64,000 nt of DNA from contig JAPKDL010000007.1 of NCBI GenBank assembly GCA_028822585.1, positions 4,091 to 68,090 on the forward strand, written 5' to 3'. Below, one piece after another: positions 4,004 through 22,646 of this stretch (within the stretch, counting starts at the first letter, position 1; the number at the start of each line of letters is the position of its first letter). Under the pieces are notes generated by a model. The model was not told the DNA's origin and ran no database searches. It saw nothing but the letters and a program-made list of their open reading frames with translations. The translations under genes and the position numbers were made by a program. Source of the DNA: Alphaproteobacteria bacterium (GTDB taxonomy: Bacteria > Pseudomonadota > Alphaproteobacteria > UBA8366 > GCA-2717185).

Positions 4004-4837
4004 TTGATGGAATGGACCGACTTTTCCGTGAAATTCTGGGGTGTGCGCGGCAGCATTGCGTGCCCGGGCCCGTCAACTGTGCGCTATGGCGGAAATACAT
4101 CGTGTCTGGAGGTTATGTGTGGCGACCGCCGGTTGATTTTTGATGGGGGCACCGGGCTGCGAACTCTGGGTCAAACGATGATGGGGCAAAACCCCTGCGA
4201 TGTTGATTTATTGCTGACGCATACGCATTTTGACCATGTTTGCGGCTTGCCATTTTTTGCGCCGTTCTATATTCCCGGCAACAAGATCCGGCTATGGGCG
4301 GGCCATTTGGATGCGGAGCTTGGCGTGGAGAAAGTGATCCATGACATGATGATTGCGCCATTGTTTCCCGTGCCGCCGGGCGCGTTTCAAGCGGAGGTAT
4401 CTTATAATGATTTTGAATGTGGAACGACCCTGACGTTGGGTGACGGCGTTTCTGTCCGCACATGCGCGCTCAATCATCCCAACCGCGCGACCGGTTATCG
4501 GGTTGATTTTGAGGGTCGGTCATTGTGCTATATCACCGATACGGAACATGTTGAAGGCGAACGTGACGCAGCGATTGTCAAGCTGATTCAAGACGCCGAT
4601 CTCGTCATTTACGATTCCACGTTCACCGATGCGGAATATTCTAAATTCAAAGGTTATGGACATTCGACGTGGGAGGAAGGAGTTCGTCTGGCCGACGAGG
4701 CGCATGTAAAGACCTTGGTCTTGTTCCACCATGACCCAAGCCATGACGACGATTTTATGGACCAAGTAGCGAAAGATGCCGAAACCTCGCGGCCCGGCAC
4801 GCTGGTAGCGCGCGAAGGCGATACTTTGTTACCATGA
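4004..4837 (+). CDS. Metallo-beta-lactamase-fold hydrolase (RNase Z/phosphodiesterase-like)
   Basis: FWGVRGS, YGGNTSC, THTHFDH (HxHxDH), TDTEH, GHST, LFHHDP. Confidence 0.9.
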   Translation: MMEWTDFSVKFWGVRGSIACPGPSTVRYGGNTSCLEVMCGDRRLIFDGGTGLRTLGQTMMGQNPCDVDLLLTHTHFDHVCGLPFFAPFYIPGNKIRLWAGHLDAELGVEKVIHDMMIAPLFPVPPGAFQAEVSYNDFECGTTLTLGDGVSVRTCALNHPNRATGYRVDFEGRSLCYITDTEHVEGERDAAIVKLIQDADLVIYDSTFTDAEYSKFKGYGHSTWEEGVRLADEAHVKTLVLFHHDPSHDDDFMDQVAKDAETSRPGTLVAREGDTLLP

Positions 4838-5050
4838 GAGGGTCCCTATGAGAGGACGCCCATGAAGTGGCACCTGCCGCAGGACGATAGCGAGCGGTTG
4901 GCCACTTGGCCACGGCGGGACTTTAAGAGCGTGGCTAAGCGCAGGGGTATGCGCTGGTGGTGCCCCGCGATCACACGATGATGATTATTAAAGGCGTGGC
5001 GGAGCCGGTCGATGTCGTTGTGCTGGCCGATAAATTTTGGGTGACTGAAT

Positions 5051-6208
5051 TTATTTATAAGGGTCGGCGGCGTCGCGTAACCCATCGCCTAGGAATTGAA
5101 ATGCCAGCACGATTAGGATTACCGGGATCACCGGATACATCAGCCAGGGATACAGCGCGACGACGTTGATGTTTTGCGCTTCGTTCAACAATACGCCCCA
5201 ACTAGTGATCGGCGGGCGCAGGCCCAGCCCCAGGAAACTCAAGGCTGTTTCCCCCAGAATCATGCTGGGAATCGACAAGGTGGCCGATGCGATCAGGTGA
5301 CTCATGAAGCTGGGCAGCAAATGATGTCCAATAATGCGGCTGGGTTTTGCACCCATGAGCTGGGCCGCGACGCAGAAATCTTCTTCGCGCAAGGCCAATA
5401 ATTTGGAACGCACCGCGCGCGCCAGTCCCGGCCAATCCAACATACCCAAAATGACCGTAATGCCCATGAACACCAGAATGGGGCTCCACGTGACCGGTAG
5501 AATTGCTGACAGCGCCATCCATAATGGCAGGGACGGAAAGGAGCGGATGATTTCGATAATCCGCTGGACGATGGAATCGACCATGCCGCCATAATACCCG
5601 GCTAAGCCGCCAATGGTCAGCCCCATGGCGAAGCTAATAATGATGCCGACCAACCCGACCGTCAACGATATGCGCGCGCCGTACAATATTCGGCTGAGCA
5701 CGTCCCGACCCAGTCGATCCGTGCCCAGGAAAAACAACTGTCCATTCGCTGCCGGGCACACCACGTGGAATTTGGCGTCAAACAGGTTCCAGAATTCATA
5801 GCGCGCACCGTCGTAATCATCACTATTGCAGAAAAACCGAATTTTTTGAATGCGGGCTGGGTCGTCTTTGTAAACCCATTGCAAATGTTCCATATCCAGG
5901 CTGACATTGTAGCCATAGACGAAGGGTCCGACGAAGTCGCCGTCATGGAACAGGTGAACCGATTGCGGTGGCGCGTACAGATAGTTGGTGTGGCGCGCTT
6001 GTAAATCATAAGGTGCTAGCATTTCGCTGACGACTATGGACAGATACACCATCAATAAAAACGCGCCGCTGACCACGGCCAGGCGATGGCGTTTCAGCTT
6101 CCACCACATCAGCCGCCACTGTGATGCCATGTAATAACGTTCTTGTTCCGGCGTCAGTGTAGTGGCGACATTGGGATCAAAGGGCGCGTCGTTGACGAAA
6201 TGTTTCAT
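5051..6208 (-). CDS. Peptide/nickel-type ABC transporter permease (DppC/OppC-like)
   Basis: LGTDRLGRD, EAA-like loop, ETALSFLGLG, GDGLRDAADP. Confidence 0.95.
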   Translation of the reverse strand: MKHFVNDAPFDPNVATTLTPEQERYYMASQWRLMWWKLKRHRLAVVSGAFLLMVYLSIVVSEMLAPYDLQARHTNYLYAPPQSVHLFHDGDFVGPFVYGYNVSLDMEHLQWVYKDDPARIQKIRFFCNSDDYDGARYEFWNLFDAKFHVVCPAANGQLFFLGTDRLGRDVLSRILYGARISLTVGLVGIIISFAMGLTIGGLAGYYGGMVDSIVQRIIEIIRSFPSLPLWMALSAILPVTWSPILVFMGITVILGMLDWPGLARAVRSKLLALREEDFCVAAQLMGAKPSRIIGHHLLPSFMSHLIASATLSIPSMILGETALSFLGLGLRPPITSWGVLLNEAQNINVVALYPWLMYPVIPVILIVLAFQFLGDGLRDAADPYK

Positions 6209-7203
6209 CGGCTCGCCCCCCCGCTTAACCGGATGCGTGGGTCAAGCGCGGCCAGCGCTAGATCCGACAGCAATGTGCCGATGACGGTCAGTGTCGCCAG
6301 ACACATAAGGAACGATCCGGCGAGGTACATGTCCTGGCTTTGCAATGCGTTTAGCAACATCGGCCCAGTGGTTGGCAGCGACAACACGATGGAGACGATC
6401 GCCGCGCCGGAAATGATTTCGGGCAATAAATTACCGATATCGGCGATGAAAGGATTCAACGCCATGCGCAACGGATATTTCACTAGCGCGCGTCCCGGCG
6501 GCAACCCTTTGGCTTTCGCCGTCACGTAATATTGCTTATTCAACTCGTCGAGAAGATTGGCGCGCAATCGCCGGATCATCCCGGCTGTGCCGGATGTTCC
6601 GATGACCAGAACCGGCACCCAAAGATGTTCGAGAATCGATAGTATTTTATCCAAAGACCATCCTGCTGCGATATATTGTGGGTCCATCAGCCCGCCAATG
6701 GATGTGCCAAAGATGCTGAAGGCCAGCCATTGCAACACCAGGGCGAGCAGAAAATTTGGCGTCGCCAATCCCAGAAAACCCAAGAATGTAAGGCTGTAAT
6801 CTCCCAGACTGTATTGTCGCACCGCTGAATAAACGCCAATTGGAAACGCCACGACCCAGGTGAAGATGATTGTTGTAAATGATATGATAAAGCTTAACAG
6901 CAACCTGTCGCCAACGACGTCCGATACCGGCTGACTGTATTCGAAAGAATATCCAAAATCACCGTGCAACATGCCCACGACCCATGCGAAATATTGCTCC
7001 AACATCGATTTGTCGAAACCGTATTGTTGCTTGATGAATTCAATTTTCGCTTTGTCGATGGACTCGCCGCGGCTTTGTAGCTCGTTCATATAGGTCGTGA
7101 AATAGTCGCCGGGCGGCAATTGGATAATGATGAACACCAACGCGCTGATGACCAGCAACGTTGGAATCATGACCAGAACCCGGCGGGCGAGATACTCTAA
7201 CAC
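6205..7203 (-). CDS. Peptide/nickel-type ABC transporter permease (DppB/OppB-like)
   Basis: LPPGD, GDFGYS, TAKAKGL, LDPRI; ATGA overlap with the next permease. Confidence 0.95.
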   Translation of the reverse strand: MLEYLARRVLVMIPTLLVISALVFIIIQLPPGDYFTTYMNELQSRGESIDKAKIEFIKQQYGFDKSMLEQYFAWVVGMLHGDFGYSFEYSQPVSDVVGDRLLLSFIISFTTIIFTWVVAFPIGVYSAVRQYSLGDYSLTFLGFLGLATPNFLLALVLQWLAFSIFGTSIGGLMDPQYIAAGWSLDKILSILEHLWVPVLVIGTSGTAGMIRRLRANLLDELNKQYYVTAKAKGLPPGRALVKYPLRMALNPFIADIGNLLPEIISGAAIVSIVLSLPTTGPMLLNALQSQDMYLAGSFLMCLATLTVIGTLLSDLALAALDPRIRLSGGASR

Positions 7204-7215
7204 GATGGCATTGCC

Positions 7216-9153
7216 TTACCTGTACGTAGCTTGTTTTTTGGGTGGGGATGTGTCGGTAAACCAGAAACTATCCGGTTCGTACATGCCGAATTGTGCGCAG
7301 GGTAGCCATGTATAAATAGCTTTTACCGGCACGTTTTTCAGGGTGTTGCGCACCACAATGGGCTGAAGAACGCCGGAAATTAGGCCAATCGAATATACCT
7401 GGTCGGCGTGGATCGTCAGCATCTCATGCCATATTGTGCGCCGCGCGTCGGTTGAGGTCGCGCGGAGCCATTTTTTGTGAAGCACCTTTAACCGTTTGGG
7501 CTCGGGCATGTCTATGGCTTCGCCCATGTTGCCCATGGTTTCGTGACTTTGCCCCCATTTCGGCCATTGATATTGCACTTGGGAGGTTGGCGCGAGGTCT
7601 TCGGGGTCCATGTCGGCGGTGGGCAGGCCGTTTTCTAATCCCGATGAAATCGACATGACGGTTTCCCCGGCGTAGATGCGGTTGCGCATGACCTCGCGCT
7701 GGGTCGGTTTGGTGTGTAGTTTCGCGCCAATCAAGGCCCAGCTATCCTGGATTAACTCCAAAACATCGGCTTCTTCGGTGCTTTCGCCGGTGGATTCCAC
7801 AATGATGTCCAAGGGGCGACCATCGGGTAGCAGGCGGATGCCGCGGTCGTCCCGTTTTTCCAGCCCTATGGAATCAAGTTGCCGGTTCGCTTCGGCGATA
7901 TCATATTTAGCCCAGCTTTTCTGGTATTTGTCGCGGAACAGCGGACTGCCGGGAAGCACCGTATTTTGGGCTTCCAACGCCAGGCCAAAATAGATCACTC
8001 GGTTCAATTCATGCCGATTGACCGCGAGTGATATGGCGCGGCGGAACCGCACGTCACGCAGCAACTTTCGCCATACTGGGTCATTGGTGTTCAAGTTGGG
8101 GAACAACGCCATATGCGCGCCCTTGCCGGTGCGCCACAGGCGGGTGTTGAACCCACTTTTCTTTTCGTTACGTTTCAGAAACGTAAAGTTGTCAAACCGC
8201 AGATACCGCGCCTGTAAATCGGCTTGGCCCGTGCCCACCTTGGCGGGAATGATATTGCTGCTGGCGATGCCGAACACCACCTGGTCGATATATGGCAATT
8301 GCCGCCCGTCCGGGTCGACCTTGTGATAATATGGATTGCGTTTGAAAACGTATTGTTCCGAGGGTCCCTTGGTGGTGTTGACCCAGGGTTGCAGCGATGG
8401 GAGGCGAATATTTTTGTTTTTGTACTGGTGGTCCAGTTTGTTGTGCAGCGCCGCCCAGTTTCGCTGGCCCTTTTTTTTAGCCTTGGTGTTCAGCTTGGCC
8501 GTGTCTTTGTAACGCGCGTGGTATTTTCGCAGATAATGGGCGGGCCGGTAAACGTATAACGGGCGCGCGCCCGCCAGCGCCGGCAAAAACGCCGGGTTCG
8601 GATTGTCCCATTCGAAACGGATTGTCACATCGTCGATGATGGTGACGGCTGGTGGCTTGCCGTCGACGCGCAGCACGGCGGGTGGCCCTGTTGGCGACAA
8701 CATGTCGTGGTTCGCCACATCTTCCCAATAGTAACGGAAATCTTCGGTGGTGAACGGCGCCCCGTCGGACCATTTATGCCCCGGGCGAAGATGTAGCGTG
8801 AATTTACGACCATCTTCGATCTCCAAATCCCGCAAAATATCCGGCACGATGTCGAGGTCACGGTTATATCCGGCCAATCGCGCATAGCCATAGACGACCA
8901 TCAATCGAATATCCTTGGGCCGCGCCATAAACATTTTCATAGCGCCGCCATGGCGTCCGATGCTTTGATTGGCCAAATTCATGGGGCGAATATAGGGCGT
9001 TTCCGGCAATCGTTGGCCAACCGGCGGCAGTTTGCCCGCCGCGACATCCGCCGCCAAAGTGGGTGGTTCGATGTAAGACTTTGCATTTACGCAGTGCGGC
9101 GTGAACGCGATGACAAGGGATGCGATGGCGGTGCATAATAGTGCTGGAGACAT
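7216..9153 (-). CDS. ABC transporter substrate-binding protein, family 5
   Basis: Signal peptide ([20 protein letters not shown]), LRPGHKWSDGAPFTTEDF, RNPYY, LPYID. Start placed at the TAATG overlap with the ATPase stop. Confidence 0.9.
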   Translation of the reverse strand: MSPALLCTAIASLVIAFTPHCVNAKSYIEPPTLAADVAAGKLPPVGQRLPETPYIRPMNLANQSIGRHGGAMKMFMARPKDIRLMVVYGYARLAGYNRDLDIVPDILRDLEIEDGRKFTLHLRPGHKWSDGAPFTTEDFRYYWEDVANHDMLSPTGPPAVLRVDGKPPAVTIIDDVTIRFEWDNPNPAFLPALAGARPLYVYRPAHYLRKYHARYKDTAKLNTKAKKKGQRNWAALHNKLDHQYKNKNIRLPSLQPWVNTTKGPSEQYVFKRNPYYHKVDPDGRQLPYIDQVVFGIASSNIIPAKVGTGQADLQARYLRFDNFTFLKRNEKKSGFNTRLWRTGKGAHMALFPNLNTNDPVWRKLLRDVRFRRAISLAVNRHELNRVIYFGLALEAQNTVLPGSPLFRDKYQKSWAKYDIAEANRQLDSIGLEKRDDRGIRLLPDGRPLDIIVESTGESTEEADVLELIQDSWALIGAKLHTKPTQREVMRNRIYAGETVMSISSGLENGLPTADMDPEDLAPTSQVQYQWPKWGQSHETMGNMGEAIDMPEPKRLKVLHKKWLRATSTDARRTIWHEMLTIHADQVYSIGLISGVLQPIVVRNTLKNVPVKAIYTWLPCAQFGMYEPDSFWFTDTSPPKKQATYR

Positions 9154-11045
9154 TACGCGGACTCCTGAAGATTGACATCGGCCAGGGCGCGAACGATATG
9201 GCCGCCGCCAATGTCCCGAAGAATAGGCCTGTTCCCCGGCGTTTCGGCGAAAGGATGGGGCCATTCTGACGGCGTGGACGCCTTTTCCGCCATAAGGTTT
9301 TCGAAATTTAAGGGCGCATCCAAATTCGCTTCCGGCACCGCTTGCAACAGCGCCTGGGTGTAGGGGTGGGTTGGTTGTTTGAACAACATTTCGCGCGGCG
9401 CCATTTCCACCAATTGGCCCTGGCACATGACCGCAATACGATTAGCGATATAGTCGACGACCGCTAAATTATGGGAAATGAACAAATAGGTGAGCCCAAG
9501 TTCCGCCTGTAAATCTTTAAGAAGGTTAAGAATCTGTGCTTGAATTGATACATCCAGCGCAGATACGGGTTCATCGCAAATGAGTAAATCGGGTTGCAAC
9601 GCCAGGGCGCGCGCGATGCCAATGCGTTGACGCTGGCCACCTGAAAAACTGTGCGGATACCGGCTTAGATGCCGCACGTCCAGGCCCACCAAGCGCATTA
9701 ATTCGCGCGCCGCGTTGCGTTGGCTTTCGGCGTCGCCAATCCCATGGATGACCAAGGGTTCGGTGATGATGTCGAACACGGGCATGCGCGGATTTAATGA
9801 ACTGAACGGGTCCTGGAAAATGAACTGCATCTTGCGGCGGAAGGGAATCAGGGCTTTCGGCGTCAAGGCTAGAACATCGATCAACGACCCGCGATTGTTA
9901 TAAGTGACGGTGCCGGAATCGGGGGTTAGCGCCCGCATCAACATTTTCGATAAAGTTGTTTTGCCACAGCCACTTTCGCCGACTAGCCCTAGACATTCGC
10001 CCCGGGCGATTTCAAAGCTGACGCTGTCAACCGCTTTGACGCTTTCGCTCGGCCCGCCACTAAACAGCTTACTTTTGCGAATTTTAAACGCCTTGGACAA
10101 ATTGTCTACTTTCAATAGGGGCGCCTTTGTGGCGTCGGTATTCGACCAAGGTTCTTTTGCTTCGTGCAAGAATGTTTTGTGATGCTCAATCTCGCGGATG
10201 GGGGTTAGCCGTTCGCCCGGCGCTAGACCGAAACGAGGGACTGCTTTGTGCAACGCTTTTAGATAAGGATGTCCCGGATTTCGGAAAATATCTTCGGTAC
10301 CGCCGGATTCCATGACTTCACCGTGGTACATGACGACAATATCTTCGGCCATGTTGGCGACGACACCTAAATCGTGCGTGATCATCATCACGGCCATGCC
10401 AAGTTCGCCTTGCAGATCGCGCAAAAGTTTTAGGATTTGCGCCTGGATGGTGACGTCGAGCGCTGTCGTCGGTTCGTCTGCGATCAACAGGCCGGGGCGG
10501 CACACCAGCGCCATGGCGATCATCGTGCGTTGCCGTAATCCGCCGGAGAGTTCGAATGGATAGGTTTTCAGCGCGCGCGCCGGGTTTGGGAACCCGACCA
10601 GGCGCAGCATTTCCTGGGTGACTTCCAAGCCTTCCGCTTTGCTAATTTTCCGGTGCAGATGCAAGGCTTCGCTGATTTGATCGCCAACAGTATGCAGCAT
10701 GGACAGGGATGTCATTGGTTCCTGAAAGATGATGGAGATGCTGCTGCCACGAATGGCGCGCATTGCGGCGCTGTTGGTGCCAAGCGCCGCAATGTCGACC
10801 GCATCGCCTGGTTTGTTCGGGTCGTTGAACATTATCCGACCGGATGAAATCGACGCCGCCTTGGGCAGAATGCCCATGATGGCTTGTGACATGACGGATT
10901 TTCCTGAACCGGATTCACCCACCAGCGCGACGGTTTGCCCCGGCTGAATTTGAAAGGAAACGCCCTTTACGGCCTCAAGCACCCCTTCGGGCAGGATGAA
11001 TTGAACCTTCAAATTTTCAACGCTCAACAGTGGGGGTGGTGACAT
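9153..11045 (-). CDS. ABC transporter ATP-binding protein with two NBDs (DppD/F fusion)
   Basis: [22 protein letters not shown] and [22 protein letters not shown]. Start taken at MSPPPLL. Confidence 0.95.
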
Positions 11046-11049
11046 TTGA

Positions 11050-11562
11050 TTACGCCTCATCCGCCATATTGATGGTAATGCCCATGGACGCGATATTTTC
11101 CATTGTTGTTTCATCCATTTCGGCATTGTTGTGGAACCCGGCCTGGACGACGTTATTGGCGATGTCATCGAATCCGTTTAATGACGATTCGAGGGTCATT
11201 TTTTCCGCCTTGCTAAACAATGTCAGTTGCATCCAACCCTCGTTTTTGTCCCGGTGCGTTGAATAAAATTTTAGCGCCACCTTGTTAATGTCCCGCCAGG
11301 CGATCCGTCGCCCCAAGGGTCCGTTGGCGATGACCCCTTCATCATCTGTTTCAATGATCGTCATTTGGCGCAAAGCGACCTTTGCGGCAAACCCTATAAA
11401 CACTAATAATATGCCAGCGAGTATGGTTGACAATATGGGGCTGTCTTTAACAAAGTATAAAGGCGTCCCGAAGAACAAAACGCCGATCGCAGCGCGAACA
11501 TAATCGCCGTATAGGCTGGATAAAGGGTATTCTTGGGCGTTATTCATGTTACGGGGGCTCAT
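11050..11562 (-). CDS. Hypothetical membrane protein (two TM helices plus soluble C-terminal domain)
   Basis: Two hydrophobic segments; ATGA coupling to the upstream deacetylase and 4 nt gap to the ATPase gene. Confidence 0.7.
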   Translation of the reverse strand: MSPRNMNNAQEYPLSSLYGDYVRAAIGVLFFGTPLYFVKDSPILSTILAGILLVFIGFAAKVALRQMTIIETDDEGVIANGPLGRRIAWRDINKVALKFYSTHRDKNEGWMQLTLFSKAEKMTLESSLNGFDDIANNVVQAGFHNNAEMDETTMENIASMGITINMADEA

Positions 11563-12347: not shown

Positions 12348-12365
12348 TTGGTATAACGAATTTCA

Positions 12366-13502: not shown

Positions 13503-13509
13503 TTTAAAG

Positions 13510-14121
13510 TCAGCTGCCGCCATACGCCGATGGCGATTCGGTCATGGGGTGATTCAGCAGGTGGGGGCGCGGCGCGCCGCCCGCGTCGAGACGGAAATAA
13601 TGGACGCATTCATCGTGCAGCTTTTCCGGCGCCTTGTCGGTCATGTCCCAGCCCACAGAAAGCGCGTACAAGGCGCGAAGGACGCCTTTGTGACATACAG
13701 CAACGGTGTTTTTCTGGTCGCGCGCGCATTCGGCGAGAAATGGCTTTAGTCGGTTTTGCACATCGCGGGGGCTTTCGCCGCCGGGCGCGCGAAAATCCAG
13801 TCCGTCCGCCTCCCACGCTTTCATAAGATCACCCAGTTCCGCGCGTAATTCTGGCAGGCGCATTCCTTCCCATTCCGCCCAATTCATTTCAATGAGGCGG
13901 TCATCGGCGCGGGCGGGTTGTCCTGACAAGATCAACGCCGTTTCCTGGGCTCGTTTCAAAGGACTGGCGACCCAATCGAAGCTGCCGAGGTCCTGGGGCG
14001 TCGCCCACGCCGCAACGCTGTCGCGCCCGTTTGGGCTGAGGGGTATATCGCTGTGACCCTGGACAACGCCAGATTCGTTCCATTCGGTGGGCCCATGGCG
14101 AATAACAGCCAACAAGGTCAT
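13510..14121 (-). CDS. Histidine phosphatase (phosphoglycerate mutase-like) family protein
   Basis: IRHGPTEWN, SPLKRAQET, GGES, VCHKG. Confidence 0.9.
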   Translation of the reverse strand: MTLLAVIRHGPTEWNESGVVQGHSDIPLSPNGRDSVAAWATPQDLGSFDWVASPLKRAQETALILSGQPARADDRLIEMNWAEWEGMRLPELRAELGDLMKAWEADGLDFRAPGGESPRDVQNRLKPFLAECARDQKNTVAVCHKGVLRALYALSVGWDMTDKAPEKLHDECVHYFRLDAGGAPRPHLLNHPMTESPSAYGGS

Positions 14122-15251
14122 GTGAGATTCTCCAGGATGCAGTTTAAGTGGTGGGCGGCGTCGTCGACGCCATGATGGGTTTGGGCGCGAACCGATGCGG
14201 TGCGGCCCATCGCGCGGCGGCGATCAGGGTCCTGTAATAGCGCTGCCGTTGCGGTAGCCATATCAGCTTCCAGGTTTGGAGAATCCGACGGAACGATTAT
14301 TCCCGTTTCCCCATGCGCGACGATTTGGCGGACGCCGGGCGTTCCGCCGGCGATGACTGGAACCCCGGCGGCTTGGGCTTCCAGAAGGGCCATGCCGTAG
14401 GCTTCGCGGACCGCAGGCCACACAACTAAATCGGCGGCGGCGTGCATCGCGTCCACGTCAGGCGCGGAGGTTTCGCCAAGCCAGCAAACCCGAGGGTCGC
14501 CGTTAAAATTCGCCTGGATAGCTGCGCGCGCCGGGCCGTCACCCGCAACGAGGAGTTGCAAGGGGGTTTCTCGAAGTCGCTGAAGGACGCCAGCCAGGAT
14601 CCGATACGAATCGCTTTTGTCGCCCTGTCGCAACATGGCTGCGATAACGATCCAGGGCGCATCGGGGTTCAGGCCGTGTCGTTGGGCGAGATCGGCCCGG
14701 CGCTTTGCCCGGTCGTGCGACGCAGATGGGGTCGAACGGGTGTCGACAAACGGCGCCAGGGCGGCCATTCGCCGGTCGTCGTCAACCACGTCGCGCACGC
14801 AAGGCGCGTCATTCGGGTTGAGTGTAATAACGCGCGCCGCATGGCGTAGGGCGTTTTGAACATCGCCATGCCCGCACCGCCAGGGGCCGTCGACCTGTTT
14901 AGGGGCGAAACTTGCTTCGGCGACGACATAAGGCACCGCCAGCGCCTCGCTTACCACCGGACCCAGCAGATCGGGCGCTTTGTGGTACAGATGATAAGTG
15001 AACCAGAGATCCGGGCCGCCCGTCTTGGGGGATTTTTTAATATAAGACTGGGCGATTCGGGCAGCGCGGCGGCGAATGGCAGCCTGGCGCCCGCTGTCGC
15101 CCTCGCCCTCATAACTGCGCAACGTGGAGGCGATGGTGACCAGATGTCCGGCGCGGCGCAGCGCCAGGATTAACAATCGCGCCATGCGTCGGTCCCCAGA
15201 AGGAACCGGGTGGTTTGGCGGCTTCAACGGTGCATGAAAGGCGATGCGCAT
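14118..15251 (-). CDS. Glycosyltransferase family 4
   Basis: HPVPSGDRRMA, EAYGMALLEA; TGATG coupling. Confidence 0.9.
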   Translation of the reverse strand: MRIAFHAPLKPPNHPVPSGDRRMARLLILALRRAGHLVTIASTLRSYEGEGDSGRQAAIRRRAARIAQSYIKKSPKTGGPDLWFTYHLYHKAPDLLGPVVSEALAVPYVVAEASFAPKQVDGPWRCGHGDVQNALRHAARVITLNPNDAPCVRDVVDDDRRMAALAPFVDTRSTPSASHDRAKRRADLAQRHGLNPDAPWIVIAAMLRQGDKSDSYRILAGVLQRLRETPLQLLVAGDGPARAAIQANFNGDPRVCWLGETSAPDVDAMHAAADLVVWPAVREAYGMALLEAQAAGVPVIAGGTPGVRQIVAHGETGIIVPSDSPNLEADMATATAALLQDPDRRRAMGRTASVRAQTHHGVDDAAHHLNCILENLT

Positions 15252-16477
15252 CACGCGGCGGTCGATTGTGGTTGAAAAAGTTTCGACAACGAATCGATAC
15301 CGTCATGCATTGAAAAATGGGACCGGACCCGCTCGAATCCAGCCTGCGCCAGTTTGGCCCGTAAAGCCGGGTCTTCCAACAGGCGGCGAAGCGCGTCCGA
15401 CAGGGCCGCCGAATCTCCCGGTGTTACCAAAACCCCGGTTTCACCATCAAGGATCAGTTCGGGAATGCCCGACATTCGCGTACTGAGCACGGCCACGCGC
15501 TGACTCTGCGCTTCCATCAAGACGTTGGGCAGGCCGTCGCGGTCGCCATCAGGGGTTTGCTTGCTGGGCAGGACAAAAACATCGGCGCGGCGAATTTCTG
15601 ACAACACTCTGCCTTGGGGCTGTGCGCCCAGCCATTCAATGCGGTCTTCCAGTCCTAGGCCATGGGCGCGATCCCGCAATTCGTTCAAAAGCGGCCCGCC
15701 GCCAACATGTCGAAACCGCCAATTCAGGTGTGGTGGCAGGGACGCGAGGGCTTGCAGGCAATCATTGTAGCCTTTCTTGGGCACGGCGCGACCGACCGAC
15801 AAGATGATCAAAGGCGTATTAGGCGTGTCTGACATGTGCTCGCAGGCGTCCGGGGGCGCGAATCGGCTAAAATCGAGACCATGATGCACCAGGGACACCG
15901 TCTCGGGGTCCGGCGCTAACGTCCGTAGATAATCGGCACCCGATTGGGTACATGTGACCAACCAATCGAGGCAACCCAGCTTTTCGCGGATGTCCCACTT
16001 GGGCGTTGTCCAAATATCCTTGGCGTGGGCCGACCCGCTCCAGGGCAATCCCCGCATGATCGCGGCGTAGCGCGTGACGGAGGCGGGTGTGTGCAAGAAA
16101 TGCGCGTGCAGACGGTCGATGTCGTCCGGCAATTCGCAGGCAACCACACAGGCTTGACCAAACCGTCGCATACGATTTCGCGTAAAGTCGCGACGTAAAT
16201 CCGCTCCCCAAAGGGTGAATGCGGCGGTGAATCCCGGTAACGTGCGCGCCTGAATCAGGGCGCGTGCGACTCGCCGGGGTTCGTGATGAAGGTATTCGGG
16301 GAGATAGAGAATCGGTGCCTGGATTTCCTGGTGGATTGGATGCGTGTCGGTGTCGGTCGGGTGGCGCAGGGAGATAATATGGATTTCATGGCCACGTTTT
16401 TCCAGGGCTCGGATTTCCTGGGCGATGAAGGTTTCCGACAGCCTCGGATAACCCTTTAGGACAAATGCGGTGGCCAT
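15251..16477 (-). CDS. Glycosyltransferase family 4 (WcaL-like)
   Basis: YPRLSETFI, HAHF, AHAKD, VGRAVPKKG, DRDGLPNVLMEA. Confidence 0.9.
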   Translation of the reverse strand: MATAFVLKGYPRLSETFIAQEIRALEKRGHEIHIISLRHPTDTDTHPIHQEIQAPILYLPEYLHHEPRRVARALIQARTLPGFTAAFTLWGADLRRDFTRNRMRRFGQACVVACELPDDIDRLHAHFLHTPASVTRYAAIMRGLPWSGSAHAKDIWTTPKWDIREKLGCLDWLVTCTQSGADYLRTLAPDPETVSLVHHGLDFSRFAPPDACEHMSDTPNTPLIILSVGRAVPKKGYNDCLQALASLPPHLNWRFRHVGGGPLLNELRDRAHGLGLEDRIEWLGAQPQGRVLSEIRRADVFVLPSKQTPDGDRDGLPNVLMEAQSQRVAVLSTRMSGIPELILDGETGVLVTPGDSAALSDALRRLLEDPALRAKLAQAGFERVRSHFSMHDGIDSLSKLFQPQSTAA

Positions 16478-16547
16478 CGCTAAAAACCCTAGGTTCTTCC
16501 ATTGCGGTTAAGGCCATCTATCTTGCGACTCATGGCCCTTGCGGTTC

Positions 16548-17777
16548 TTAGGCTTGTTGGCGCGCTGATGCAATTTCCGGCTGGGCGGATTTGGGCCGAC
16601 GCTCCAGCATGTGCCGGGTTAGGATATTAACATTATTGAGTCCATCGAGAAGTCCGGGCACGACGATGTCCGAGGGTGAATTTTGCTGTGGCAGATGCCG
16701 TAAGGCGGTAGCCATCGTTTTGGCCGCGCGAACGCTGTCATCGCATAACATGGTGACAAGGCCCAAATCTTCCGCGCGGCTGGTGCGGATGTATTGTTCC
16801 AACCGGGGGGCGGTGCGCGGCACGATGAGCGCTTTTTTGTCGAAGGACAGTATTTCACAAAATGTATTATAACCGCCCATGGCGACAATGCCTTCCGCTC
16901 GGGCGACTAAGCTTTCCATATGAGCTTCAAAGGTGATGGCGTCGACTTTATCCAGCGCGTCGGCGCGGGCGATGAACTCGGACCGGCGTTCCGATTGCAT
17001 GAACGGGCCCAACACAACCATCGACGCATACGGCAGGTCTTTTTCGGTTTCATAGGCGCGCAATACCCAATCCACCAATATTTCGCCATCGCCGCCACCG
17101 CCGGGCGTCACCAGAATGTACGGCCTATCTGTCTTCGCCAAGGCAGGTTGACCGACAGGTTTGGGGCCTTCGAAGCGGCGCAAATATCCGGTGTAGACCA
17201 TTTTACGGCGCAGCGATTCCGGCAGGCCGATTTCCGCAAGGGGTTCGCAAATCTGCGGCAGTCCGTAGACCCACATTTCATCGTAATAGGTTTCCAGCGC
17301 CGGGATGGCGTTTTTCCGTTTCCATTCCGGTCCCAACAATCGGGGTTCGTCCAACACGTCGCGCAGGCCAAGGACAATGTGCGCGCCGCGTTTTTTGAGA
17401 ATGTCCAACGTGGCGGCGAGTTCGCCGCGCAGGCCGAGCGGTTCTTTGTCGACGATAAATATATCAGGGTCAAAAAATTCTGCGGTGTGTTGAATTATTG
17501 ACGCGCGCATCGCGATCGTGTCGTCCACCGCCATGGGCAATGTCAGGGAGGTGTATTCCCCGTTGCGTAATTTTATGACGCCGGGAATTCTGACGAAATC
17601 AACGCGAGATCGAAAATCAAAACTGCCAATAATAGGCGATCCGGACAGGATCAACACCGACAAATCCTCATTGCTTTCGCAGAGGGCGTGCGCTATGGCA
17701 CTGCATCGTCGCAGATGGCCTAAACCAAAGGTGTCGTGGCTGTATATAAGAACACGCGGTGGCGTCCGTTGCTTCAT
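16548..17777 (-). CDS. Glycosyltransferase, COG4671-like
   Basis: YSHDTFGLGHLRR, GLRDVLD, TPGGGGDG, MGGYNTFCE, EQYIR. Confidence 0.85.
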   Translation of the reverse strand: MKQRTPPRVLIYSHDTFGLGHLRRCSAIAHALCESNEDLSVLILSGSPIIGSFDFRSRVDFVRIPGVIKLRNGEYTSLTLPMAVDDTIAMRASIIQHTAEFFDPDIFIVDKEPLGLRGELAATLDILKKRGAHIVLGLRDVLDEPRLLGPEWKRKNAIPALETYYDEMWVYGLPQICEPLAEIGLPESLRRKMVYTGYLRRFEGPKPVGQPALAKTDRPYILVTPGGGGDGEILVDWVLRAYETEKDLPYASMVVLGPFMQSERRSEFIARADALDKVDAITFEAHMESLVARAEGIVAMGGYNTFCEILSFDKKALIVPRTAPRLEQYIRTSRAEDLGLVTMLCDDSVRAAKTMATALRHLPQQNSPSDIVVPGLLDGLNNVNILTRHMLERRPKSAQPEIASARQQA

Positions 17778-18054
17778 TACTTCCCGTCCTTGGCCCGTCT
17801 TCACCGATGCAAAACCGTGTTCCCTGACCGGTTTCGCACCCTTCGTTTCCGTTCAATTCTAATGCGTCACGGCATCGACCGGATGGATTCATGCCTATGT
17901 CCGCGCATAGAAGTTATTTAAATAAACGTCTTTCAAGGATTAATGCCAGACATTTACGGTTTTGAAAAGCTGCGCTAAGGTGCGGGCGAATAAAATTTTA
18001 GTTTCATAACACGGACTTTTTAAAAGTCCTGGCTGGAGGCCGCGCGGTAGTTTC

Positions 18055-20721
18055 ATGGAAAAGTCCATTTTCAAATACATTTTGAAGTATAGTGCGGCTC
18101 AGCAAATTTACTTGCTTTGCGTCATTCTTGCCTTCTATCCGTTTTTGTTTATTTCGCTTGATCTGCCAAAGATCATTATTAACCGGGCAATCAAGCCGAA
18201 TGCGGATGGTGACGTGTTTGAAGCGCCCATCTTTGGATATGAAATAGAATTTGATGTCTCGCAACTAACCTTCCTTCTAATTCTAAGCTTTTTCTATTTG
18301 GCGTTGGTCTTCATCACGGGCGGCTTCAAATACTACATCAACGTCTTCAAGGGCCGGATGGGGGAGCGCTTGTTGCGGCGGCTGCGTTATCAGCTTTATA
18401 CGCGGATACTCCGGTTTCCCCTTCCCCATTTCAAAAAAGTCAGTCAGGGCGAGTTGATCCCGATGATCACGGCGGAAGTCGAGCCGCTGGGCGGGTTCAT
18501 TGGCATCGCCTTTGCCGACCCGCTGTTTTTTGGCGGCCAGTTGATGTTGATTCTCGGTTATATCTTTTTGCAGGATTGGAGGCTTGGCCTGGCGGCGGCA
18601 GCGCTGATCCCCGTGCAGGGGTTTATAATTCCCAAACTGCAAAAAAAGGTGAATGCGCTGGGCAAACAGCGTGTCCAGAACGTACGGCGGTTGTCGGATC
18701 ATCTTTCCGAATCGGTGTCGGGCATCGGTGAAATACACGCCCACGATACATCGAATTTGGAACTATCCCGGTTCTCGAGTCGATTGGGCGGCATTTATTT
18801 AATCCGTTATGAAATATATCGGCGAAAATTCTTCGTTAAATTTCTGAATAATTTTATTGATAAGTTGACGCCCTTTTTCTTCTTCTCAATTGGCGGCTTT
18901 CTGGTGATCGAGGGGCATTTGACGGTCGGTGCTTTGGTGGCGGTATTGAATGCGTACAAAGATTTGGCCAGCCCCTGGAAAGAACTTTTGGCCTGGTATC
19001 AGCAAAAAGAAGATGTTCGCATCAAATATGAACAAGTGGTCGAGCAGTTTGAACCTCAAGGCATGTTGGAAGAAAATTTGCAGCATGACGAACCAACCGC
19101 GTCGTCCCCCATCACCGGCGAGCTTTCGGTGAGTAATGTTAGTGTGGCGGACGAAGACGGCGTTCGGTCCATTGACACGGTGTCCTTTACGACGCCGTCT
19201 ACTGCCCATGTGGCTATCGTTGGATCCAGCGGCAGCGGCAAGGACGACTTGGCTCAGGTTGTGGCGCGGTTGTTGGCGCCGACCAGCGGTAGGGTCCTGT
19301 TTGGGGGTCAAGACATCGCCAATATGCCCGAAGCCGTCACCGGTCGCGATATTGCGTATGTTGGCTCAAATGCATATTTGCAGTCGTTTTCCGTTGGCGA
19401 CAATTTGGTCTATGGCCTGAAACACCGGCCCTTGGTCGACCGCAAATATAACGCTGCTGATACTGCGGCAGCGACCCTGGAAAAGGCAGAAGCTGCAGAA
19501 ACGGGTAACTCACCCTATGATTACAATGCTGACTGGGTCGATTACGCGGCGGCGGGCGTGTCTGATGGCGAGGCGTTGATAGGCCGCGTCAACACATTGT
19601 TGGGCATGGTGGAGTTATCGGACGATGTCTATCAATTGGGTTTGCGAGGTACGATTAACCCCAAGAAGCGTGGCGATATTGAGGAACGGATTATGTCTGC
19701 TCGCCATGCGTTGCGCGACCGTTTGTCTGAACCGGAAATCGCACCATTAATCGAACCGTTTGACCAGACGCGCTTTAACACCAATGCGTCTGTGGCGGAA
19801 AATATACTGTTTGGGTTGCCGGTGGGCGACTCATTCGATCTCGAAAAATTGGCGGAACATCCCTATATCCGACAGGTTCTTGATAAAGTTGGCCTGACTG
19901 AAGATTTTTTGGCGATTGGCCAAAACGTGGCGCAGACGATGGTCGAGCTGTTTGCGGATTTACCGCCGGGCCATGAATTTTTCGAGCAATTCAGCTTCAT
20001 TGATGCAGAGGACCTGCCAGATTATCAGACCTTGCTGGGGCGCGCTGCGCGCGGCGCCGACGGCTTGACCGAAGAAGACCGACTGCGGCTCATTTCGTTG
20101 CCGTTTAAATTGAACCCGGCGCGCCATCGACTAGATCTGATAGACGAACGTATGATGGAGCGAATTCTTGAAGCGCGCGAGGCTTTTGCGGCGGACTTAC
20201 CGGAAGCGCTATCTGACAAGGTCGCGTTCTTCGATGTTGACGCCTACAATCCCACGGCGTCGTTACAAGACAATATCCTGTTCGGCAAACTGGCCTATGG
20301 GCAGGCGCAATCCGCTGCGAAAGTGCGCGAGGTGATTGCAGATGTTATCGACAATCTCGACCTTCGGGATACGGTTATTTCGGTTGGGCTGGACTTCCCG
20401 GCGGGCACCGGTGGTGCAAGATTATCTCAGGCGCAGCGGCAAAAACTGGCGATAGCGCGTGCGGTGATCAAAGAGCCAGCGCTACTCATTTTGAACGAAG
20501 CTGCGGTGAGTCTGGACCAATCCGTGCAGGCTGTCATTTTGGATAATATCTTGAACGAACGGCATGGGCGCGGCGTTATCTGGGTCCTGAACCGCATCGA
20601 CGACGCGCAAAAATTTGACGAAATCATTGTAATGAAAGACGGTCGTGTCGTGGAAAATGGATCCTACGACAACCTGTCCGCTCAAGACGGTGAATTCAAA
20701 GCGCTTCTGGGCTCCGTATAA
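18055..20721 (+). CDS. ABC exporter-type protein (TMD plus degenerate NBD with ~300 aa insertion)
   Basis: N-terminal ABC membrane domain; Walker A GSSGSGKD; signature LSQAQRQK; Walker B LLILNEA. Confidence 0.85.
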   Translation: MEKSIFKYILKYSAAQQIYLLCVILAFYPFLFISLDLPKIIINRAIKPNADGDVFEAPIFGYEIEFDVSQLTFLLILSFFYLALVFITGGFKYYINVFKGRMGERLLRRLRYQLYTRILRFPLPHFKKVSQGELIPMITAEVEPLGGFIGIAFADPLFFGGQLMLILGYIFLQDWRLGLAAAALIPVQGFIIPKLQKKVNALGKQRVQNVRRLSDHLSESVSGIGEIHAHDTSNLELSRFSSRLGGIYLIRYEIYRRKFFVKFLNNFIDKLTPFFFFSIGGFLVIEGHLTVGALVAVLNAYKDLASPWKELLAWYQQKEDVRIKYEQVVEQFEPQGMLEENLQHDEPTASSPITGELSVSNVSVADEDGVRSIDTVSFTTPSTAHVAIVGSSGSGKDDLAQVVARLLAPTSGRVLFGGQDIANMPEAVTGRDIAYVGSNAYLQSFSVGDNLVYGLKHRPLVDRKYNAADTAAATLEKAEAAETGNSPYDYNADWVDYAAAGVSDGEALIGRVNTLLGMVELSDDVYQLGLRGTINPKKRGDIEERIMSARHALRDRLSEPEIAPLIEPFDQTRFNTNASVAENILFGLPVGDSFDLEKLAEHPYIRQVLDKVGLTEDFLAIGQNVAQTMVELFADLPPGHEFFEQFSFIDAEDLPDYQTLLGRAARGADGLTEEDRLRLISLPFKLNPARHRLDLIDERMMERILEAREAFAADLPEALSDKVAFFDVDAYNPTASLQDNILFGKLAYGQAQSAAKVREVIADVIDNLDLRDTVISVGLDFPAGTGGARLSQAQRQKLAIARAVIKEPALLILNEAAVSLDQSVQAVILDNILNERHGRGVIWVLNRIDDAQKFDEIIVMKDGRVVENGSYDNLSAQDGEFKALLGSV

Positions 20722-20826
20722 TTTTCGGGAATGCAGATGAATTCACCGCATGTTCACGCATTTTGTGGTAGTTTGAATTAACCAAGAAATTGTTGGCGCT
20801 GCGCCGCCACTCAAGGAGACGCCTGA

Positions 20827-21279
20827 ATGGGATTACTGGATGAGGTGGAATTACTTCGAAAAATTCCGATTTTCTCAAAAATTGAACCCTCGAAGTTAAA
20901 ATTGTTAGCGTTCACAAGCGAGCGCCTAACCTATGCCGAGGGTGACGTGTTGTTCGAGCAAGGGGATGCTGGCGACGCCGCATATATTATCATTGGCGGC
21001 AAGGCCGACGTGGTGGTGGATACGCCAGGCGGTCCTTTGATCGTGGCGACTTTGGATGAAAATGAAATTGTGGGTGAAATAGCCATTTTGTGCGACGTGC
21101 CACGAACTGCGACGGTGAAGGCGAAAACCGAAGTGACGACATTGCGCATCACCAAGGATTTGTTTTTCAGCCTCGTCGTGGAGTTTCCACAAATCGCCGT
21201 AGAAATTATGCGTGAACTGGCGCATCGACTTGAAGTGACGACGGCCCGGCTTCGAGAAGCTGTGGGGAAACCTCAATAA
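20827..21279 (+). CDS. Stand-alone cyclic nucleotide-binding domain protein
   Basis: LFEQGDAGDAAYII..G, phosphate-binding cassette GEIAIL..PRTATV; no HTH; SD AAGGAG. Confidence 0.9.
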   Translation: MGLLDEVELLRKIPIFSKIEPSKLKLLAFTSERLTYAEGDVLFEQGDAGDAAYIIIGGKADVVVDTPGGPLIVATLDENEIVGEIAILCDVPRTATVKAKTEVTTLRITKDLFFSLVVEFPQIAVEIMRELAHRLEVTTARLREAVGKPQ

Positions 21280-21296
21280 AATGAATACATTATAGT

Positions 21297-21788
21297 ATGT
21301 CGCGGCTAGATGCTGTTATTGGGCGCTTGAAATCGCAACGAAGCTGTTTAAATGCGGCGGTCGCTCTTATTGGCGAGGCTCCCGGTCATGTTCTGGAGCT
21401 TGGTTTGGGGAATGGGCGGACTTATGACCATCTACGCCTATTGTTTCCAAATCGAAATATTTATGTGTTTGATCGGGAAGTCGCCTCGCACCCGGACTGC
21501 CGTCCGCCTGCCGACCGGTTATTTTTGGGGTCTATGGAGGATACCTTAGCGGCGGCGACGGCGCGACTGGGCGCAAAGGCGGCGTTGATTCACGCGGATA
21601 TCGGGTTTGGGGATGCGGCGGCTACGGAACGCAATGTTGCGACCCTCGGACCCCTGTTGCCGGGTCTTCTTCGACAGGGTGGAATTATCTTTTGTGACCA
21701 ATCACTCGACGGTGTTTCTGACTTTACCGCTATAACAATGCCAGGCGATGTCGCGGTGGACCGGTATTACGGATATCACAAAAAGTGA
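21297..21788 (+). CDS. Small class I SAM-dependent methyltransferase (Methyltransf_17-like)
   Basis: MSRLD...Q, VLELGLGNGRTYDHLR, VFDR, HADIG. Confidence 0.8.
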   Translation: MSRLDAVIGRLKSQRSCLNAAVALIGEAPGHVLELGLGNGRTYDHLRLLFPNRNIYVFDREVASHPDCRPPADRLFLGSMEDTLAAATARLGAKAALIHADIGFGDAAATERNVATLGPLLPGLLRQGGIIFCDQSLDGVSDFTAITMPGDVAVDRYYGYHKK

Positions 21789-22622: not shown

Positions 22623-22646
22623 TGGAATCACCTTCTTCGAGGGAGA

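Follow-up and report, generated by a model that had tools for sequence, protein, structure and literature searches.

A conserved alphaproteobacterial locus linking glycosyltransferases and an Opp-type importer to a cyclic-nucleotide-binding protein and an ABC-exporter-fold protein with a degenerate ATPase site

Introduction

What does a bacterium make, and what becomes of the product, when four glycosyltransferases (GTs) and a complete family-5 ATP-binding cassette (ABC) importer share a locus with an exporter-like membrane protein and a stand-alone protein that binds a cyclic nucleotide monophosphate (cNMP)? The locus that raises this question is a sixteen-gene block at positions 4004-21788 of a 64,000-nucleotide stretch of the alphaproteobacterial contig JAPKDL010000007.1 (the window, whose coordinates are used here unless another sequence is named). 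An earlier note on this DNA had listed an 11-gene minus-strand operon (the glycosyltransferases, a histidine phosphatase, a deacetylase, a membrane protein and the importer), divergent from genes for an ABC exporter, a cNMP-binding protein and a small methyltransferase, with a metallo-beta-lactamase (MBL)-fold hydrolase at the other end. An open-reading-frame listing combined with Pfam and NCBIfam profile searches recovered this gene list completely and where it had been placed: the minus-strand run spans 17804 down to 5051, the plus-strand trio (ABC-exporter fold, cNMP binding, Methyltransf_17) diverges from it and the MBL gene lies at the opposite end. Here, we report that the block is conserved among Alphaproteobacteria as a single functional unit, with outlying cases in the Beta- and Gammaproteobacteria, and weigh what it might do; our leading, tentative answer is that it synthesizes, releases and recaptures a modified oligosaccharide or glycoside.

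Results

Conservation of the block as a unit

Gene content was compared across 80 loci with 10-kb flanks, anchored on homologues of the glycosyltransferase GT28a and taken as the best 80 of 593 tblastn-confirmed stretches in one-genome-per-species contigs. The window proteins were mapped on these loci by tblastn, and frequencies were counted in the 53 loci that span 19 kb or more (the full-flank set). GT28a is present in all of them by construction, and its family is very large, with 7979 of 8000 scored candidates at E ≤ 0.001. Around this anchor, the importer occurs together with the glycosyltransferases GT28b and GT4b in 42 of the 53 full-flank loci and all 11 core genes occur in 23, and the exporter-fold and cNMP genes are found jointly in 45 and singly in 2 (single-gene counts are given in Table 1). 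The gene set persists despite reordered genes in Mesorhizobium, Ensifer, Pararhizobium, Rhizobium etli and on pSymB of Sinorhizobium meliloti.

An independent test drew 301 genomes evenly from the Alphaproteobacteria and scored GT28b at E ≤ 1e-30, the importer's binding protein at E ≤ 1e-80 and the exporter-fold protein at E ≤ 1e-100. GT28b was detected in 101 genomes, the binding-protein orthologue in 90 (all listed matches at 3.3e-182 or better) and the exporter orthologue in 94. GT28b and the binding protein were both present in 88 genomes and both missing from 198; GT28b occurred alone in 13, mostly with the weakest GT28b matches, and the binding protein alone in 2, whose genomes are 68% and 83% complete. 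The pairing with the exporter is as close (both in 92 genomes, GT28b alone in 9, exporter alone in 2). In the 88 shared genomes, GT28b and the binding protein lie within 25 kb of each other in 57, far apart on one contig in 5 and on different contigs in 26, and GT28b and the exporter lie within 25 kb in 73 of 92. In this sample, genomes with the importer orthologue practically always have the glycosyltransferase too, and GT28b is the best conserved signature gene of the locus. Recurring as it does across families of Alphaproteobacteria, the arrangement is far beyond chance. The co-occurrence elsewhere on which the earlier note had staked its proposal was thus found in both the 53 loci and the 301 genomes, and its mention of similar neighbourhoods in other Alphaproteobacteria, without an assigned function, agrees with a recurrent locus for which we found neither an NCBIfam model nor a paper.

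The GT28b-containing open frame is 815 residues long in one locus (L004, 5819-8263) and 836 and 1421 residues in two sampled genomes (G164 and G210), lengths that suggest, for some species, an in-frame fusion of GT28b with the GT4 gene or genes after it.

An ABC-exporter fold with a degenerate ATPase site

The exporter-like protein carries the six-helix ABC_membrane domain of type IV (ABCB/MsbA-like) exporters, and its AlphaFold2 (AF2) model (predicted local distance difference test, pLDDT, 84.1) adopts the corresponding fold, with Foldseek matches at probability 1.00 to MsbA, TmrAB, PCAT1 and the cyclic-glucan transporter Cgt (7zo8). The marks of a competent nucleotide-binding domain are missing: the window protein has the motifs GSSGSGKD, LSQAQ and LLILNE and no H-loop histidine. 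Among 53 family members, the Walker A lysine is retained in 27, with Ser or Thr following it in 3 and Asp or Glu there instead in 42; the Walker B aspartate is retained in 2 (Asn in 39, Ser in 12), the catalytic glutamate in 30 and the H-loop histidine in 11. Judged by these motifs, the nucleotide-binding domain is degenerate family-wide, making ATP-driven export doubtful. The protein may bind rather than burn nucleotide, or it may use another energy source or gate, most obviously its cNMP partner.

The ABC_tran match is split between residues 374-482 and ~721-885 (NCBIfam rows), and a mostly helical, confidently modelled insert of ~240 residues lies between the Q-loop region and the signature motif. 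A [DE]N[IL][LV][FY]G motif that is normally single after the Q-loop occurs three times, at residues 449, 582 and 739 (region ~436-790), which suggests triplicated helical-subdomain segments in the degenerate domain.

A cyclic-nucleotide receptor tied to the exporter-like protein

The 150-residue cNMP protein matches cNMP_binding only and has no DNA-binding domain (50.3 bits with the CRP model vs 266), so that its public label, 'Crp/Fnr family transcriptional regulator', is misleading. The phosphate-binding cassette residues G83, E84, R93, T94 and A95 are invariant or nearly so in 37 sequences, and the protein is, by these features, a receptor and not a CRP-type regulator. Membership of TIGR03896, the 'bacteriocin-type transport-associated protein' family, was rejected (42.1 bits vs a 161.05 cut-off); that family shares the pairing of a cNMP-binding protein with an ABC exporter and differs in its peptide cargo.

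Domain fusions connect the receptor to its neighbours. Seven of the 51 exporter homologues read from the loci exceed 1000 residues, and all six that were scanned end in cNMP_binding, three with GGDEF as well. The 64 longer relatives of the cNMP protein include eight ABC fusions (P0176, P0177, P0179-P0183 and P0185) and two to three fusions with Methyltransf_17 (P0169 and P0178; P0188 lists PF12692 only), together with fusions to a class III cyclase domain (P0173) and to PilZ (P0174). A functional tie of the cNMP protein to both the exporter-like protein and the small methyltransferase is thus supported by the architecture of relatives. The cNMP control asserted in the earlier note gains from these fusions, whereas its ATP-driven 'ABC exporter' has become doubtful with the loss of the catalytic residues. 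More distant members of the 64 (34 of them, in the range P0193-P0232) are major facilitator superfamily permeases with a fused cNMP-binding domain, a wider transporter-cNMP theme.

Complex prediction for exporter residues 340-888 with the cNMP protein gave a score of 0.60, compared with 0.36 for the best control, with contact agreement of at least 95% between runs and a partner pLDDT of at least 81. The mark applied is reached by 58 of 80 solved complexes and by 2 of 110 mismatched pairs, but just 7 of those 80, together with both mismatches, reach it with a score of 0.60 or less.

In at least 11 of the 80 loci, class III cyclase genes lie within the cluster or next to it. They include a seven-member family between the permease and MBL genes, in which both of the two proteins scanned have Guanylate_cyc, and further cases in loci L064, L080, L066 and L081; profile scans of the window's own block found no cyclase gene. 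Metallophosphoesterase genes adjoin the cNMP gene in R. etli (L083, 21175-21807) and in a Rhizobiales isolate (L064, 15780-17660), possibly as substitute cyclic-nucleotide phosphodiesterases in these differently arranged loci.

Glycosyltransferases and modifying enzymes

Both GT4a and GT4b carry the C-terminal Glycos_transf_1 / Glyco_trans_1_4 domain of GT4 enzymes. The nearest solved sequences to GT4a are 3c48/3c4q, BshA, a sucrose-phosphate-synthase-like protein and PimB', and GT4b matches EpsE/WcaL-like NCBIfam models below their cut-offs; the likeness of either to MshA/BshA/PimB'-type enzymes is generic only. GT28a and GT28b belong by their Glyco_tran_28_C domains, and GT28b also by its modelled GT-B fold, among the GT1/GT28-like GT-B enzymes; assignment as MurG or as macrolide glycosyltransferases was ruled out, the MurG and MGT models scoring far below cut-off. 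GT28b has no sequence relative in the PDB. The top Foldseek matches of its AF2 model (pLDDT 86.8) are the GT1 small-molecule enzymes CalG1/3/4, plant UGTs and macrolide and vancomycin glycosyltransferases, at template-modelling (TM) scores of 0.5-0.62. Its closest folds thus appear to be those of GT1 enzymes acting on small or lipophilic acceptors, a hint of a small molecule. The GT28b start may lie 8 codons further in; its ESM Atlas record begins at residue 9, and that resource lists only generic 'glycosyl transferase family 28' clusters for it and no model. A crude scan found no convincing membrane segment in the four glycosyltransferases, and inspection together with the crude scan found no signal peptide in the biosynthetic enzymes, including the NodB-like protein, so assembly would be cytoplasmic.

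The histidine phosphatase belongs to branch 1, with a His_Phos_1 domain and an intact RHG motif (IRHGPTEWN at residues 7-15); its best NCBIfam match, CobC, reaches 111.6 bits, below the 162.9 cut-off. The NodB-like protein has no sequence relative in the PDB and is labelled 'polysaccharide deacetylase family protein' in public records of S. meliloti and Ruegeria. Of 38 homologues, 18 touch DUF2334 (best 1.1e-5) and 7 touch Polysacc_deac_1 (PF01522; best 1.9e-5), and the NodB-type residues RDDD, H87..H91 (HxxxH), PWNR and H229-H230 (HH) are invariant across the 38 sequences. From the RHG motif and these invariant residues, both enzymes look active. The Methyltransf_17 protein matches PDB entry 3iht at 2.1e-34. 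For the MBL protein, the nearest PDB relatives are RNase Z/ElaC-type zinc phosphodiesterases and all NCBIfam matches lie below cut-off (e.g. cyclic-nucleotide-degrading phosphodiesterase, 56.9 bits vs 400); it is a candidate phosphodiesterase of the system.

An Opp-type importer with a sugar-binder-like binding protein

The importer has the parts of the Opp/Dpp/Nik (PepT) family: a family-5 binding protein, two BPD_transp_1 permeases and an ATPase with an oligo_HPY tail. As in GsiA and YejF, two domains are fused in the ATPase (610 bits with the GsiA model, below the 1077 cut-off), and canonical Walker B and H-loop strings are visible in its translation. NCBIfam equivalogs for peptide and nickel importers match the importer parts, all far below cut-off. 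The binding protein is closest among solved structures to 5ipw (3.2e-82), which is a putative oligopeptide binder only, followed by SPH1118 (3.3e-68), the pectin-binding protein of Sphingomonas sp. A1, and the alpha-galactoside-binding AgpA (5.4e-31), with classical DppA and OppA far behind; by sequence, sugar binders and not classical peptide binders are found among its closest relatives of solved structure. Like it, SPH1118 and AgpA are large (~610-680 residues) family-5 proteins. They are relatives, not orthologues, and in the available accounts they serve catabolism and chemotaxis, not a biosynthetic locus.

Long open reading frames overlap in this part of the operon, and the starts of three genes were therefore reassigned. 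For the binding protein, the ATG at 9153 is the likeliest start and gives a signal-peptide-like N-terminus; the small membrane protein most likely begins at 11562, and the ATPase start is uncertain (11060, 11045, 11126 or 11168, with 11060/11045 likeliest). The small membrane protein has a weak STM3941-family match (E 0.0018) and one hydrophobic segment by a crude 19-residue hydropathy scan, with a second stretch discernible by eye only.

Layout and borders of the locus

Neighbouring minus-strand genes abut or overlap by 1-14 bases, apart from gaps of 70, 18 and 12 bases, a spacing that fits one operon (Table 1). Promoter and terminator scans did not rise above shuffled sequence (18 vs 13.9 ± 4.0 and 35 vs 24.6 ± 5.2); with that caveat, the divergent intergenic region holds a single promoter-like match, on the minus strand at 18024-17995. 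Pfam scans of the block found no match to Wzx/Wzy/Wza, nucleotide-sugar or glycoside-hydrolase families, as the earlier note had remarked. Flippase/polymerase, GT2 synthase, KpsM/KpsT with outer-membrane export and priming-transferase genes were likewise unmatched in the block, which does not resemble a Wzx/Wzy-, synthase- or KpsMT-type locus, and none of its genes scores above the cut-off of an NCBIfam model. Recent transfer of the block was rejected: its guanine-plus-cytosine content ranges from 0.48 to 0.63 and its edges show no sharp break.

Table 1 Features of the block in window coordinates, with the number of full-flank loci (of 53) in which each gene was found
Feature	Position	Strand	Match or evidence	Full-flank loci (of 53)
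MBL-fold hydrolase	4004-4837	+	Lactamase_B_2, E 9.7e-23	22; lower bound, gene near flank limit
Importer permease, OppC/DppC type	5051-6208	-	BPD_transp_1 + OppC_N	48; median identity 68%
Importer permease, OppB/DppB type	6205-7203	-	BPD_transp_1 + BPD_transp_1_N	47
Family-5 substrate-binding protein, periplasmic, 645 residues	7216-9153	-	SBP_bac_5, E 4.1e-56	44
Importer ATPase, double nucleotide-binding domain (GsiA/YejF-like)	9153 to ~11060	-	two ABC_tran + oligo_HPY	46
Small membrane protein, ~170 residues	~11050-11562	-	no Pfam match	37; median identity 31%
Divergent NodB/DUF2334-like protein, 262 residues, putative deacetylase	11559-12347	-	no Pfam match at 0.001	45
GT28a, GT-B glycosyltransferase	12366-13523	-	Glyco_tran_28_C, E 1.9e-14, 54.5 bits	
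Histidine phosphatase, branch 1	13510-14121	-	His_Phos_1, E 7.3e-42, 143.7 bits	42
GT4a glycosyltransferase	14118-15254	-	Glycos_transf_1 / Glyco_trans_1_4	48
GT4b glycosyltransferase	15251-16477	-	Glycos_transf_1, E 2.2e-36	52; median identity 58%
GT28b, GT-B glycosyltransferase	16548-17804	-	Glyco_tran_28_C, 24.9 bits vs cut-off 22	49
Divergent intergenic region between the import/biosynthesis operon and the exporter-cNMP-methyltransferase genes	17805-18054	.	sequence	
ABC-exporter-fold membrane protein, 888 residues	18055-20721	+	ABC_membrane (9e-23) + ABC_tran	46
Stand-alone cNMP-binding protein, 150 residues	20827-21279	+	cNMP_binding, E 1.2e-19	46
Small S-adenosylmethionine-dependent methyltransferase	21297-21788	+	Methyltransf_17, E 5.4e-50	20; lower bound, gene at edge of 10-kb flanks

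The block is bordered on one side by the gene at 21828-22631, which was considered as a member through its Exo_endo_phos (EEP) domain and rejected as exodeoxyribonuclease III (202 bits vs the NCBIfam cut-off of 182.6); homologues 54-68% identical to it adjoin the locus in several relatives, probably by simple synteny. On the other side, a plus-strand GT4 gene and an overlapping methyltransferase-like gene (Methyltransf_25 below threshold) at 1108-3098 were rejected as members, with only 25-32% cross-matches and no orthologues in the 80 loci. Between them and the block, an OmpR-type response regulator gene (3296-3982) lies on the same strand as the MBL gene and ends 21 bases 5' of it; in 5 of the 53 full-flank loci the MBL gene has a homologue of this regulator (44-75% identity) at its side, and no NCBIfam equivalog matches it at cut-off.

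Variant loci and environmental libraries

Carriers of the locus include organisms amenable to experiment: Rhizobium, Sinorhizobium, Mesorhizobium, Azospirillum, Ruegeria/Tritonibacter and Thalassospira. In S. meliloti 1021, the locus lies on pSymB at 822.5-845.8 kb, with the MBL homologue adjoining the NodB-like gene, and it is also present in an S. meliloti megaplasmid record. Its exporter-like gene (~841.7-844.4 kb) is split over two frames (query residues 1-122, then 122-884), as is its cyclase gene (~828.5-829.8 kb; 1-291, then 291-449), and the exporter is absent from the coding-sequence table of a second strain, Ak57. Both genes may be pseudogenes in S. meliloti, which could account for the absence of a phenotype in this model organism. 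R. etli carries the locus on plasmid pRetIE4803a with an extra metallophosphoesterase. Cyclase genes are present in the records of both rhizobia, as is a DUF3095 protein that UniProt names 'adenylate cyclase'. In Ruegeria sp. TM1040, an operon of the order GT-GT4-GT4-phosphatase-GT-deacetylase-methyltransferase lies two genes downstream of the importer, and Methyltransf_17 follows the NodB-like gene. A UniRef member of the S. meliloti GT28b cluster is named 'RedA' (Q9X6W3); a source for this UniProt name was not found, and the papers that a search for redA in S. meliloti returned are unrelated.

Sequence from 11500-21400 was found, at half or more of the sampled words, in 15 runs labelled marine or seawater metagenome, and 20 rows from 14 studies, 6 of them on record as RNA, carry at least part of it. 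Contigs from four RNA runs of four studies cover 30, 30, 30 and 27 of the 30 bins of 3900-22700 at ≥95% identity. This coverage is consistent with expression without proving it, DNA carry-over being possible. Contigs from RNA libraries (X15 and X17; 16320-18869) span the divergent intergenic region, from the interior of GT28b into the exporter gene, which could reflect DNA carry-over, overlapping transcripts or an assembly join.

Discussion

A tentative model

The conservation described above asks for one account of synthesis, transport and cyclic-nucleotide sensing, and the account we favor, with a probability of roughly 40%, is that the block works as one unit to synthesize, release under cNMP gating and recapture a modified oligosaccharide or glycoside. 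The four soluble cytoplasmic GT-B enzymes (two GT4, two GT1/GT28-like) would build the compound, possibly on a lipid anchor; the histidine phosphatase would strip phosphate from the acceptor or an intermediate, the NodB-like enzyme would remove an N-acetyl group and the small methyltransferase would add a methyl group. The product would then cross the inner membrane via the ABC-exporter-fold protein working with the cNMP-binding protein, its release gated by cyclic AMP (cAMP) or cyclic GMP (cGMP) rather than driven by ordinary ATP turnover, and the MBL-fold hydrolase would be the likeliest phosphodiesterase of the signalling arm. In the periplasm, the large family-5 binding protein would capture the compound or a processed form of it for uptake by the Opp-type importer. 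Each chemical step, the direction of transport and the recapture are here read from gene content.

A number of observations weigh against this model, whose product, substrate and transport direction are inferred. The exporter-fold protein, lacking the catalytic ATPase residues, may be no exporter at all, its predicted complex with the cNMP protein supports the pairing only weakly, and 6 of the 53 full-flank loci have neither gene nearby; in Ruegeria TM1040 no exporter or cNMP gene was found within 14 kb. The deacetylase named in the earlier note has its NodB-type residues intact and is weaker than was stated, the window protein falling short of the Pfam threshold (no match at 0.001, the best being DUF2334 at E 0.11). 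The histidine phosphatase was unfound in 11 of the 53 loci, so a phosphorylated intermediate is not universal, and the window's query did not find it in the rhizobial versions either. Methyltransf_17 and the MBL gene were seen in just 20 and 22 of the 53 loci, both being lower bounds. In 31 of 88 genomes the importer and GT28b lie more than 25 kb or whole contigs apart (26 on different contigs, some in fragmented assemblies), and related genomes are not independent, so the co-occurrence counts overstate significance. Lastly, rhizobial loci add a nucleotide-sugar dehydrogenase, in S. meliloti also a polysaccharide lyase directly upstream of the importer, and a distant GT28-GT4-GT4-ABC variant on an Escherichia coli plasmid (CP057155.1; L086, 128034-153155) adds a porin of the alginate-export family; these additions point to a polymer, not a small molecule. 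That plasmid variant, whose GT28 is 32% identical to GT28b and whose ABC transporter is of normal length, also has two phosphotransferase/kinase-like genes and a nucleotide-sugar dehydrogenase and adjoins K88-type fimbrial genes. The 'small' product of the earlier note keeps the hint from the GT1-like fold of GT28b, against which stand the rhizobial dehydrogenase and the S. meliloti lyase, suggesting a polymer there; with the added genes, some lineages may make a uronate-containing polymer.

Alternative explanations

The polymer could also be the rule: the block would then make an acidic surface or secreted polysaccharide by an ABC-exporter route, with the importer salvaging lyase-released fragments and cNMP controlling secretion as cyclic di-GMP (c-di-GMP) does elsewhere. 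We consider this unlikely. The dehydrogenase of S. meliloti and R. etli, the lyase next to the S. meliloti importer and the porin and dehydrogenase of the E. coli plasmid variant all fit it, as do the resemblance of the binding protein to pectin-binding SPH1118, the GGDEF domain in some exporter fusions and PilZ in one cNMP relative. In the window block itself, however, genes for a dehydrogenase, a lyase, outer-membrane export, chain length and a priming transferase are all missing; the window genome does have homologues of the S. meliloti dehydrogenase, on another contig, and the lyase query returned nothing at E ≤ 1e-8. Moreover, dehydrogenase and lyase occur in just a few Rhizobiales loci of the 80, and the nearest folds of GT28b are small-molecule GT1 enzymes. 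Those same folds would suit acceptors other than growing glycans and so lend something to an import-modify-export route, in which the Opp-type importer brings in an outside oligosaccharide or peptide-like compound for glycosylation and trimming by the enzymes, and the product leaves through the ABC-fold protein. Importer and glycosyltransferases are indeed co-inherited and share one operon here and in rhizobia, but recapture explains their co-occurrence equally well, nothing points to an outside substrate and the block has no catabolic or detoxifying enzyme, which leaves this route improbable.

A membrane glycolipid pathway, in which the GT1/GT28-like enzymes glycosylate a lipid, the ABC-fold protein carries in the manner of a flippase and the importer has a separate, linked role, draws on the match of the exporter fold to the lipid flippase MsbA, on MurG among GT28 relatives, on a sterol glucosyltransferase among the fold neighbours of GT28b and on the conserved small membrane protein. 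Its chances are slim, given four glycosyltransferases without a convincing membrane segment in the crude scan, a block without an acyl- or lipid-synthesis gene and a co-inherited periplasmic binding protein that argues for a soluble ligand. Chance proximity, an ordinary peptide importer and exporter beside an unrelated glycosyltransferase operon, is disfavoured and hardly credible: family-5 importers are usually peptide or nickel systems, and all NCBIfam matches here are to such systems, though below cut-off, yet GT28b accompanies 88 of 90 binding proteins and 92 of 94 exporters, the set stays together after rearrangement, and fusions tie the cNMP protein to exporter and methyltransferase.

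Relation to known systems

Four well-known systems share part of this logic. In the Nod-factor pathway (NodC, NodB, NodS, NodIJ), a sugar backbone is assembled in the cytoplasm, N-deacetylated, methylated and exported by an ABC transporter. The synthesis-deacetylation-methylation-export sequence proposed here is the same, whereas a NodC-type GT2 synthase, a NodA acyltransferase and a NodIJ-type exporter are missing and the NodB likeness is weak; the locus resembles that pathway and is not a member of it. The staphylopine Cnt loci for opine-type metallophores combine biosynthesis genes and an exporter with a family-5 Opp/Nik-type importer that recaptures the released molecule. Their architecture matches ours, and the CntA/C/D/F models match the importer parts below cut-off; here, however, glycosyltransferases take the place of nicotianamine-synthase-like and opine-dehydrogenase genes, and a metal-regulator gene was not noted. 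In MshA/BshA-type thiol pathways, a GT4 enzyme works on a small acceptor, phosphorylated or acidic, before a phosphatase and an N-deacetylase act. Among solved structures, GT4a and GT4b match MshA- and BshA-like chains best (NCBIfam models below cut-off), but these matches cover mainly the donor-binding half and are generic to GT4, the deacetylase here is NodB/DUF2334-like rather than LmbE-like, and there is no cysteine ligase. Cyclic beta-1,2-glucan export by NdvA/ChvA/Cgt in rhizobia, Agrobacterium and Brucella also sends a soluble cytoplasmic glycan through a homodimeric type IV ABC exporter, and glucan-exporter NCBIfam models match our exporter-fold protein below cut-off, with the Cgt structure among its fold matches. 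Those transporters have catalytic ATPase motifs, unlike the present family, in which the Walker B aspartate is gone from 51 of 53 members and the ~240-residue insert is present; the locus also lacks a glucan synthase and adds an importer and a cNMP receptor. Known polysaccharide secretion gates use c-di-GMP, and the likeness lies in a second messenger acting on a secretion machine, not on transcription.

Two other pSymB clusters were compared. The Clr-regulon cluster was rejected as this locus, the cited account placing it elsewhere, at nodP2-smb21248 (PMC5498481). The S. meliloti msbA2 operon (SMb21188-SMb21191) likewise sets glycosyltransferases beside an MsbA-like exporter and is linked to an unknown polysaccharide (PMC3687685; PMC12239276); as far as these sources describe it, it lies at ~938 kb, ~100 kb away from 822.5-845.8 kb, and has an acyltransferase and no importer or cNMP gene. 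A literature search for this gene set, for DUF3095 and for COG4671 found no paper that assigns a function, and no curated NCBIfam family explains the locus. We conclude that this unit exists, as does its link to cNMP, and that neither appears to have been described.

Biological meaning

The boldest form of the favored model would be a release-and-recapture circuit for a small modified oligosaccharide in a third of the sampled Alphaproteobacteria, with release through a non-hydrolysing ABC-fold protein opened by a cAMP/cGMP receptor and re-uptake of the Opp type. Taken whole, it is distinctly unlikely; if true, it would amount to an autocrine signal or scavenging molecule made of sugar and would give the many orphan nucleotide cyclases of these bacteria an output other than transcription. 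For three genes of the locus, the public labels ('Crp/Fnr transcriptional regulator', 'oligopeptide ABC transporter' and 'ABC transporter ATP-binding protein') are probably incorrect or uninformative. The locus is common, occurs in tractable organisms and has close relatives in seawater RNA libraries. It offers a concrete cAMP/cGMP effector in bacteria that have many cyclases of unexplained purpose, and a case of an ABC-exporter fold in which the ATPase site has degenerated throughout the family. Through its tight coupling of glycan synthesis to an Opp-type importer, it could also lead to sugar molecules of a new class, exported and then recaptured.

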